In this document: piece by piece, positions 17,398-63,972 of the stretch
Position numbering within the stretch: position 1 is the stretch's first letter
Layout of the letters: the number at the start of each line of letters is the position of its first letter
DNA from: Escherichia phage wV7
Strand: one strand, 5' to 3'
DNA length: 64,000 nt
Sequence record: NC_019505.1
Program-made: the position numbers and the translations under genes
Notes under the pieces: generated by a model
Told to the model about the DNA's origin: nothing
The model's input: only the letters and a program-made list of their open reading frames with translations
The model's database searches: none

Positions 17398-17562
17398 TTA
17401 CTCTTCTTTTTCTTTAGATTCCTCTTTTTTCTTTTTAGGAATCTGTTCAGGACCTTTATTTACTACAGCGCCTGATGTTGTTCCAGTAGAGATATTTTCA
17501 GGATTACCACCTGAATCTCCAGCGACCATATCTTCTTTGATAAATTCTTTATATGTTTTCAT
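17398..17562 (-). CDS. small lysine/glutamate-rich protein with capsid-targeting-like N-terminus
   Basis: Manual call, 54 aa: MKTYKEFIKEDMVAGDSGG...KKKKEESKEKEE; N-terminus resembles T4 internal-protein CTS MKTYQEFIAE; coordinates approximate. Confidence 0.35.
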   Translation of the reverse strand: MKTYKEFIKEDMVAGDSGGNPENISTGTTSGAVVNKGPEQIPKKKKEESKEKEE

Positions 17563-56877: not shown

Positions 56878-56919
56878 ATATACCCCTTTAGTTAGATAAA
56901 CCTATTTATAACTTTTGCA

Positions 56920-61457: not shown

Positions 61458-61787
61458 TCAATTAGAAAATAAATTTATCCAAGATTGTTCTTTAATTAAA
61501 AATGGCTCAGAATCATATGCCATTAAACTTTGGGTGATTAGTCCTTTAAAAGGTCCATCAATAAATTCCATGGTAAAATATGGAATTTTATTCATTAACT
61601 GCGCGTTAGGAGCAGTGCACAAAACTCTGCATCCTTTGAATACGCCTTTTTGTAATTTGTATTGCTTGGGATAAAATTCGCTCAAAATGTTATTATTTGC
61701 CAAAATTTCAAAATGATTCACCAATTTATTTTTAATAGTTTTTGGCGAAAAATAAAGATATTCGAAAAGCTGTGTGTCTGTCATCAT
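61458..61787 (-). CDS. hypothetical protein
   Basis: 109-aa ORF. Confidence 0.45.
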
Positions 61788-62326
61788 TGCATTCCAATCA
61801 CAAAAAATTGAGGACGAACTGTTTCACCTGTTTCAGCATTATAGCTTCGACAACAGTGTTGTACCGTTTTAATATGGATATTGTAAATCTTATCCATATC
61901 AGGAGCTTTAATAGGTTCGTCAATTATGTACAAGATACGAGAAAGCGATAACCCACGGAATTTATGACCTTCATTACCGATAAAACTACGGACAGAATCA
62001 GTAAATAAACGGAATCGAATATCATCATTAGAATAACGCGAAAATTCCTTTTTAATGTTATTTGCAGAAATTTTAGCGTAAGCTGAAGTATTAGAAAGAA
62101 CAATAACTGTTCCGCCATCATACAGCCAATTAGCAGCAAAGTTAGTCACAGCAATTGATTTACCGGATTGACGTCCACCATCTATACGAAGTGTGCAGTA
62201 CTGTTTGAGCACATCTTCCATTGGTGGAAGATAATCATTCTTACAAATTTCTTCTACTCTAGCATCAGAATGGTGTGTAAAAGCATTCATCAGGGATAGA
62301 TAAGGACCAGTTAAAAATGTTCTCAT
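61784..62326 (-). CDS. small P-loop NTPase-like protein
   Basis: Start at M17 with GAGAGAATAAA RBS; Walker A-like DGGRQSGKS and Walker B-like ILYIIDEP. Confidence 0.45.
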   Translation of the reverse strand: MRTFLTGPYLSLMNAFTHHSDARVEEICKNDYLPPMEDVLKQYCTLRIDGGRQSGKSIAVTNFAANWLYDGGTVIVLSNTSAYAKISANNIKKEFSRYSNDDIRFRLFTDSVRSFIGNEGHKFRGLSLSRILYIIDEPIKAPDMDKIYNIHIKTVQHCCRSYNAETGETVRPQFFVIGMQ

Positions 62327-62467
62327 TTTATTCTCTCTAAGTTTGGGCCATTCCGTGGCGCATGAATTGTCCATTTCTGTATTTACCCATTACCGCACTT
62401 GGGCTCGACCTTATCACAGGTTGGCGGGAATCCCTCACAGAATCATGAGGTCCAGGTTGTTCCCATA

Positions 62468-62941
62468 TTATTTGAACGATTTAACGTACTGAATAGAACC
62501 CTTACTATTCACAAAGGCAATTTTACCATTTTTATTATACATGGTAGCAGTACGCTGATAACCATAGGTTTGTTTACCAGATTGATAACCAACTAATGCA
62601 AAATTATCTTCACCCATTTTATTCTGTTTAGCGCGAATGCGTTCATGACCATGTGCCATAAGAACCTTAGCATCACCAGTTGCAATGGATCGACGAGTTT
62701 TTTCATCTTCAACTGCATTAACAAAGTCGTCAAATGAATCAAATTTAGCATGAGATTTATTATACAATTTTCCATCTACTGCATAATTATATCCCTGTAC
62801 ATCCATCTCAACTTCTGTACCATCATCCAATACAGCAGTAATTTTTTGACCTTTTTTAAATTTCAAAAGATCAGTAAAAGATTCAGCAATAATTTGAGAA
62901 TTAATAGCTGCTTCAGTGATAAATTCTTGATATGTTTTCAT
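62468..62941 (-). CDS. internal protein with capsid targeting sequence
   Basis: 157 aa; N-terminus MKTYQEFITEA matches the T4 internal-protein CTS. Confidence 0.6.
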   Translation of the reverse strand: MKTYQEFITEAAINSQIIAESFTDLLKFKKGQKITAVLDDGTEVEMDVQGYNYAVDGKLYNKSHAKFDSFDDFVNAVEDEKTRRSIATGDAKVLMAHGHERIRAKQNKMGEDNFALVGYQSGKQTYGYQRTATMYNKNGKIAFVNSKGSIQYVKSFK

Positions 62942-62950
62942 GGGTTTCCT

Positions 62951-63367
62951 TTAAATGTAAATATTTTTACCGTAATACTTATACCAATGCGGTTTCATTA
63001 AAATTTTTTCATCAAGTCGTTGTTGACTCAATTTAATAGCTGATTTGCATGGATTATAATCATTTTTCCATTCTATTGGAATATCGCTGATGTCAGGAAC
63101 TTCAGTATCTTTTATACTGAACCCGCGTTTTAAGCATTCCGTTATAATGTCTAATTGACGCTTTCGCAAAAATTCTAACTTATCGTAAAAGAACGTAACA
63201 TGACCAGAACCTAAAATAAACTCGGAAGATATTTTAAAATCTTTAACGCGCTTACCGTTTGCCACATGCTTACGAACTATACCAAAAACACGCGGCAATT
63301 CACGGTATTCTGCGATTAAATGTTGATCAGCAAGTTCAGATACTAAAGTCAAATTAATACGAGTCAT
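62951..63367 (-). CDS. denV: endonuclease V (pyrimidine dimer DNA glycosylase)
   Basis: 138 aa; [18 protein letters not shown]-terminus as T4 DenV. Confidence 0.9.
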
Positions 63368-63392
63368 TTTATCCCTCCAAGTAACTGTGAAT

Positions 63393-63422
63393 ATACTATC
63401 ACAATTCTAGGAGAAAGTAAAC
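63393..63422 (-). promoter_or_regulatory. T4-type early promoter
   Basis: GTTTAC ... TAGTAT upstream of denV. Confidence 0.5.
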
Positions 63423-63426
63423 AACT

Positions 63427-63972
<546 letters not shown>

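Follow-up and report, generated by a model that had tools for sequence, protein, structure and literature searches.

The window, a stretch of 64,000 nt (64 kb) of Escherichia phage wV7 (NC_019505.1), contains a run of genes on the reverse strand, transcribed in the order e, denV, Ip4, and vs.8. The genes, motifs, and signals of this run are as follows (a slash marks a cleavage position):

63948..63955, reverse strand: T4-type late promoter consensus TATAAATA, 27 nt before e, the sole one near Ip4 on this strand
63427..63921, reverse strand: e, lysozyme (Pfam/PHROG phage lysozyme), first gene of the e-denV-Ip4 run
62951..63367, reverse strand: denV, endonuclease V (Pfam Pyr_excise, PHROG endonuclease V), immediately upstream of Ip4
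62945..62952, reverse strand: ribosome binding site AAGGAAA, 3 nt before the Ip4 ATG and overlapping the denV stop codon, read from ...ATTTAAAGGAAACCCATG
62468..62941, reverse strand: coding sequence of Ip4 (ipIV), 157 aa with the targeting sequence, stop codon included in the coordinates (ORF list, Pfam, PHROG)
62912..62941, reverse strand: capsid targeting sequence (CTS), residues 1-10, MKTYQEFITE, ending in the prohead-protease motif I-T-E/A
62882..62890, reverse strand: second [I/L/M]-x-E motif, I18-A19-E20/S21, in which E20 is nearly invariant (motif scan)
62381..62464, reverse strand: conserved RNA-like element, starting 3 nt after the Ip4 stop codon (covariance model R1, 81.6 bits, E=5e-17)
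61784..62326, reverse strand: vs.8 (PHROG 1488), with the 180-aa start used in RB51 and typing phage 7

The product of the open reading frame at 62468..62941 (reverse strand) begins MKTYQEFITEAAINSQ and matches Pfam PF24183 (DUF7412; E=9.4e-96, 318.7 bits against a cut-off of 27, residues 1-157 on 158 profile positions) and PHROG 3155, ‘internal virion protein’ (E=1.2e-101, 1-157 of 157). Over the 2.3 kb that surround the gene, E. coli O157 typing phage 7 (KP869105.1) has the same sequence (100% identity), and RB51 and RB68 reach 99%; the RB51 record labels the gene ‘Ip4’ and adds ‘similar to T2, RB70 Ip4’, PP01 names it ipIV, and the BFVD entry ‘Ip4 [Enterobacteria phage K3]’ (UniProt Q38388) is 98% identical to the protein found here. 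It is the same gene as Ip4 of K3, T2, RB70, RB51, and PP01 (DUF7412, PHROG 3155): it shares its length and its slot between denV and vs.8 with the T2, K3, and RB51 genes, has 99.0% DNA identity to RB51, and shows no difference of substance from them. Judged by its sequence, the gene is not a new one: it encodes Ip4, an internal head protein of T2-type phages that already has its name. An earlier note on this DNA, made from the letters alone, had called the protein a divergent internal protein, and the novelty that this implied does not stand, since the gene is the long-named Ip4/ipIV, nearly identical to its T2 and K3 counterparts and placed in the commonest Tequatrovirus arrangement. Databases and papers already contain the gene and its name, the class to which it belongs, and the hypothesis of an anti-defence role.

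We found Ip4 homologues in 469 phage records by tblastn: 305 at 95% identity or more, T2 among them (99.4%), and 160 at 60-80%, from Klebsiella (Jiaodavirus) and Salmonella (Gelderlandvirus) phages. A search of 5.8 billion proteins gave a family of 14 clusters, with 61-99% identity throughout. The profile search returned seven matches in 1.84 billion representatives, three of which are true distant relatives; all three carry variant leaders (MNFxxFLNES), and one distant metagenomic relative (E=1.8e-21) lies directly downstream of a denV-like gene. There are 49 invariant and 23 nearly invariant positions in the family, with many tyrosines, histidines, asparagines, and glutamines among them. Between Tequatrovirus and Gelderlandvirus, identity is 70.9% for Ip4 vs. 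67% for e. The PADLOC and NCBIfam libraries gave nothing meaningful for Ip4, and outside the 10-13 residue targeting sequence no structural relative of the protein was found.

The position of the gene sets it apart from the internal protein genes of T4. As the earlier note stated, ipII and ipIII of T4 lie between denV and e (the order in NC_000866 is e, ipIII, ipII, denV, vs.8); here denV and e are separated by only 59 bp (63368..63426; about 60 bp had been estimated), a gap with no ORF of 30 aa or more that carries a targeting sequence, and the slot of the CTS gene is a different one, between denV and vs.8. The placement of the gene “upstream of denV” is right in plus-strand coordinates but not in the direction of transcription, in which Ip4 follows denV. 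After Ip4 there is a 141-bp stretch without an annotated gene, and then vs.8. Between e and vs.8 we observed five different arrangements, each a set of CTS genes, with denV present in some and missing from others. By phage, the layouts are:

T4: e-ipIII-ipII-denV
This window, T2, and RB51: e-denV-Ip4
PP01: e-ip10-ipIV, without denV
Shigella phage SH_GT: e-IP-denV-Ip4
G4507: e, then internal-protein fragments
Jiaodavirus and Gelderlandvirus: e-Ip4, in some cases with IPII; Ip4 directly adjoins or overlaps the e stop codon

Ip4 lies within the same interval in RB51, PP01, SH_GT, NP4, ValerieMcCarty01, ValerieMcCarty03, and the metagenomic relative. Among records in which at least 80% of the query is covered, 304 have the e-denV-Ip4-vs.8 arrangement and 22 have the T4 arrangement; T4 is therefore the phage with the unusual order, and the absence of ipII and ipIII from the window is the norm. 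The stretch from e to vs.8 is an interval of interchangeable internal-protein genes in T-even phages.

The N-terminus MKTYQEFITEA had been read as a T4-type capsid targeting sequence, and comparison with the NC_000866 translations agrees: the leader is identical at 10 of 11 residues to T4 IPII and IPIII, since both of these start MKTYQEFIAEA. The description of the gene as an internal-protein-type gene with a CTS is borne out. M1, K2, F7, and E10 are nearly invariant across the Ip4 family, and I8-T9-E10/A11 is the same tetrapeptide as the I-T-E/A cut site of T4 IPI, which has a mature size of 76 residues (Rao and Black, PMC3012670). In T4 record X04567, IPII and IPIII are likewise annotated as precursors (‘AA -10 to ...’), that is, with a 10-residue leader. 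The second motif, I18-A19-E20/S21, is a possible cleavage site as well, but it is probably unused. The predicted mature Ip4 is a lysine-rich protein of ∼16.5 kDa with a pI of ∼9.1; in composition, Ip4 (pI 9.1-9.3, 12% lysine) is comparable to the T4 internal proteins (pI 9.0-9.65, 13-16% lysine).

When all six frames of the 64-kb window were scanned for MK[TSQ][YF]x[ED]F, two ORFs only matched, Ip4 and the 54-aa gene 61.1. The latter (17398-17562, reverse strand), directly upstream of the primase gene 61, starts MKTYKEFIKED; this CTS-like N-terminus with an I-x-E motif is followed by an acidic, lysine-rich tail, and the gene is conserved in 1227 phage records, Acinetobacter and Aeromonas T4-likes included. 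Two more CTS-type genes, annotated as hypothetical, are found outside the window in KP869105.1 (86658-87131 and 89934-90191, both reverse strand). One lies between trna.4 and 57B, in the ipI slot, and encodes 85 aa (MKTYKEFATETIITE...); the other, which encodes 157 aa (MKSYTQFLNEAVLNEASSTE...), lies between e.8 and the tRNA cluster. Neither product is similar to T4 IPI.

The signals around Ip4 would fit transcription together with e. The late promoter consensus TATAAATA has three matches in the whole window, and apart from the copy before e, the next nearest on the same strand is at 56903. T4 has the same layout, with TATAAATA upstream of e only and none before ipIII or ipII. Between e and Ip4 we found no terminator-like site, and no TATAAATA that could serve Ip4 as a late promoter of its own; TAAAAATA, ∼22 nt before the Ip4 ATG, has one mismatch and was not counted as such. 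Since the sole nearby TATAAATA precedes e, as in T4, and no terminator separates the two genes, late expression of Ip4 from the predicted e late promoter is plausible. The e-denV spacer (63370-63426, reverse strand) also contains, by eye, GTTTAC and then TAGTAT/TATATT 17-18 nt on; this resembles a T4 early promoter, which would serve denV and Ip4, and is absent from the list of a generic sigma-70 scan.

We also checked virion data for a homologue of Ip4. Protein gp127 of Klebsiella phage ValerieMcCarty03, which is 70% identical to Ip4, was abundant in virions of two phages purified on CsCl (66/66 peptide-spectrum matches, PSM; PMC13119998, Table 3), in a data set from Klebsiella phages that also detected many non-structural proteins. 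The earlier note's expectation that the internal protein is present in virions is thus borne out for this homologue; the data do not come from wV7 itself. According to the supplementary peptide table, the tryptic peptide of the gp127 CTS, TYQEFLNESR, accounts for 0 of the 66 PSM, the adjoining peptide, LATVGVMTESVGSNLLK, which runs across the second [ILM]-x-E motif, has 3 PSM, and no semi-tryptic SVGSNLLK occurs among the 66. These peptides fit cleavage at Glu10 and not at Glu20/21, with the reservation that a missing peptide is weak evidence.

Two alternative readings of the gene are addressed by these comparisons. One is that Ip4 is a diverged T4 IPII/IPIII allele that moved across denV, as might be thought from the N-terminal 10-11 residues and the neighbourhood that both have in common. 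The similarity to T4 IPIII found by BLASTP stops at residue 13, however, the alignment to T4 IPII has low identity (31%) and is carried by the CTS, and the PHROG models of the other internal proteins match residues 1-13 or 1-21 of Ip4 only; moreover, Ip4 and a true IPII homologue are adjacent in ValerieMcCarty03. BLASTP, the PHROG models, and this coexistence refute the reading, whose probability we consider close to nil. Because similarity ends past residue ∼13, Ip4 is not an IPII/IPIII allele, the point that the earlier note's alignment check was to decide: likeness to IPI, IPII, and IPIII is confined to the CTS. (A 29% alignment of mature Ip4 with IPI* also included the CTS, and was gone once the leaders were removed, E=10.) The other reading is that the CTS-like N-terminus of Ip4 is not a packaging signal and that the protein stays in the cytoplasm, for which one could cite gene 61.1 (17398..17562), a gene with the same N-terminal motif (MKTYKEF) that is not known to encode an internal protein. 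That is very improbable, given the 66 PSM of gp127 in purified virions, the [I/L]-x-E motif that directly follows the Ip4 leader, and the internal-protein slot that the gene occupies.

What Ip4 has in common with T4 IPII and IPIII, then, is the CTS (10 of 11 residues), the I-x-E motif that ends in Glu10, a basic and lysine-rich composition, and a place in the e-to-vs.8 interval, in the same direction and downstream of the e late promoter. In their mature parts the proteins have no sequence similarity, and the T4 genes occupy the space from e to denV, Ip4 that from denV to vs.8. T4 IPI*, which is injected and inhibits GmrSD-CT596, is also a small basic protein whose precursor has the site I-T-E/A; IPI* and Ip4 are alike, too, in that each has a fold of its own, without relatives.

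We consider it likely that the gene encodes a T-even internal protein in the full sense, which is packaged, cleaved, and injected with the DNA. Following what is known of T4 head assembly, the Ip4 precursor would dock on the scaffolding core of the prohead through its targeting sequence, and the prohead protease gp21 would cut it after Glu10. The mature protein (∼16.5 kDa, basic, and lysine-rich) would then sit among the packaged DNA and, as in T4, would be ejected into the cell along with it. There, by analogy, Ip4 may bind and block a nuclease that attacks glucosyl-hydroxymethylcytosine DNA, or another DNA-sensing defence.

The analogy comes from the proteins that share the CTS. Ip1, Ip2, and Ip3 act on GmrSD type IV restriction enzymes, each inhibiting a single one without cross-protection, and T4 IPII and IPIII are the inhibitors of GmrSD-ECOR21 and GmrSD-ECOR17 (PMC12373910); the CTS protein Bas37_0260 inhibits McrBC (bioRxiv 10.1101/2025.11.20.689424). 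Since all T-even CTS proteins with a known target block type IV restriction, anti-restriction is the best guess for Ip4. Bas37_0260 is like Ip4 a CTS-bearing accessory protein of a Tequatrovirus, and it counters a type IV restriction system, but it is encoded at the ipI locus and its mature sequence is unrelated by its authors' account. The Dar proteins of phage P1 (DarA, DarB, Hdf, etc.) are also packaged in the capsid, injected with the DNA, and protective against restriction; they are unrelated to Ip4, use another packaging route, and act against type I restriction.

Our literature search found no experiment on Ip4 itself. Silas et al. assayed ip4-10 against additional GmrSD variants and obtained no reproducible inhibition. 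Phage T2 is restricted by both GmrSD-ECOR21 and GmrSD-ECOR17 (PMC12373910), although it carries an Ip4 that is 99.4% identical to the one studied here; because T2 is restricted by the targets of both IPII and IPIII, Ip4 is no substitute for either. Because the GmrSD panel was negative, T2 is restricted, and Ip4 is as conserved as e, we give roughly an even chance to the proposal, made by analogy, that Ip4 blocks a host nuclease directed against glucosyl-hydroxymethylcytosine DNA or another DNA-sensing defence. Conservation at the level of e is not what a fast arms race on the sequence of an inhibitor would predict; it suggests a conserved target, or else a more general role in the head.

Three functional readings can be weighed on this basis. 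The first, to which we give somewhat less than an even chance, has Ip4 as an injected protein that inhibits some defence other than the GmrSD variants examined to date. Alternatively, Ip4 could be mainly a structural, DNA-associated internal protein that neutralises the charge of DNA and aids packaging or ejection, with no specific host target. The basic, lysine-rich mature protein would suit such a role, as lysines of T4 internal proteins touch DNA phosphates (review PMC3012670), and so would the negative GmrSD panel and conservation at a housekeeping rate over four or more genera. On the other hand, four of the four T-even CTS proteins whose role is known are specific defence inhibitors; T4 and many other phages lack Ip4, and unrelated CTS genes take its place, which suits an accessory function; and a specific folded surface is suggested by the number of fixed positions (49 invariant, 23 nearly so). 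We regard the structural role as rather unlikely, though worth keeping in mind. It is less probable still that Ip4, instead of being a stoichiometric inhibitor, is an enzyme like Alt, injected to modify some component of the host. Alt of T4 is a CTS-bearing ADP-ribosyltransferase, so that CTS-mediated delivery is used by an enzyme as well, and Alt was detected in the same virion mass spectrometry as gp127; the invariant polar core residues of Ip4 (H64, H99, R101, K105, E111, and D112) would also be compatible with catalysis.

Returning to Ip4 as an injected inhibitor, its occurrence at 61-71% identity in Escherichia, Klebsiella, Salmonella, and Serratia phages, together with recognisable metagenomic relatives that still adjoin denV, suggests, from sequence comparison, that the target may be conserved across Enterobacteria. 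If this is true, the target is unlike the strain-specific targets of Ip1-3, and candidates would be a widespread modification-dependent nuclease or some other sensor of incoming hypermodified DNA. Internal proteins enter the cell before any other phage protein, and the four whose targets are known all disarm type IV restriction; among the occupants of the slot, Ip4 is the most widespread, with ∼470 sequenced phages, many of which are therapy candidates. The target of Ip4, which others are already pursuing, would explain part of the difference in host range between T2-type and T4-type phages.

The 141-bp gap between Ip4 and vs.8, which is ∼50% GC, is nearly invariant in T4, PP01, G4507, and this phage, whatever cassette lies upstream. 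It holds the RNA-like element, which occurs as a single copy in the window according to covariance model R1 (the wider region is 62330-62464, reverse strand) and which is the fixed downstream border of the variable internal-protein slot, outside Ip4. The T4 copy is at L003:3856-3939, further copies are at loci L014-L043, and by blastn the segment is present in 1000 or more phage records. The element lies in the gap just upstream of vs.8 in Gelderlandvirus, Dhakavirus, Roskildevirus, and Jiaodavirus; this gap is unannotated in three of the four genera, and in Roskildevirus the CDS at the vs.8 position is annotated slightly into it.

The core of the element is an invariant 34 nt, ACCUGU-RNN-AAGGUCGAGC-NN-AAGUGCGGUAA, which we found in 25 IMG/VR contigs and in 0 of 185,579 bacterial and archaeal genomes. 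The rV5-like phages have it too, as do two viral contigs (47 and 70 kb; L022 and L024); at the four of these loci that were scanned for tRNAs, the core is on the same strand as the tRNA genes, 250-730 nt from them. The 3′ arm of a 5-bp stem ends exactly 4 nt before the core. This stem is perfectly Watson-Crick paired in 20 of 23 distinct sequences, with seven different arm pairs (shuffled sequences gave a mean of 3.5 and a maximum of 9), and in alignment A4 all five stem pairs change on both sides, never on one alone, with 97% of the cells paired. Folding of the stretch after Ip4 as a single sequence was no better than shuffles (z=0.7). An Rfam 15 search (E≤1) matched nothing in this stretch of the window or in five related loci, ARAGORN found no tRNA in the GC-rich stretch after Ip4, and a comparison with T4 rnaC and rnaD revealed no similarity. 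We found no description of the element in the literature, and it looks like a candidate for a structured RNA not described so far, which could act as a leader of vs.8 or be a small stable RNA.

T4 annotates the RNA-like element as the N-terminus of a 219-aa vs.8, a frame that is closed in the window, and this T4 annotation is probably wrong. The 180-aa start of vs.8, at 62326, fits the conservation pattern better than the longer versions. The longest vs.8 ORF in the window (61784-62374, reverse strand, 196 aa) runs into the element, as does the 219-aa version of T4. The vs.8 protein has a Walker-A-like motif, GGRQSGKS, and in PHROG it weakly matches the ATPases of terminase large subunits (E=6.6e-5).
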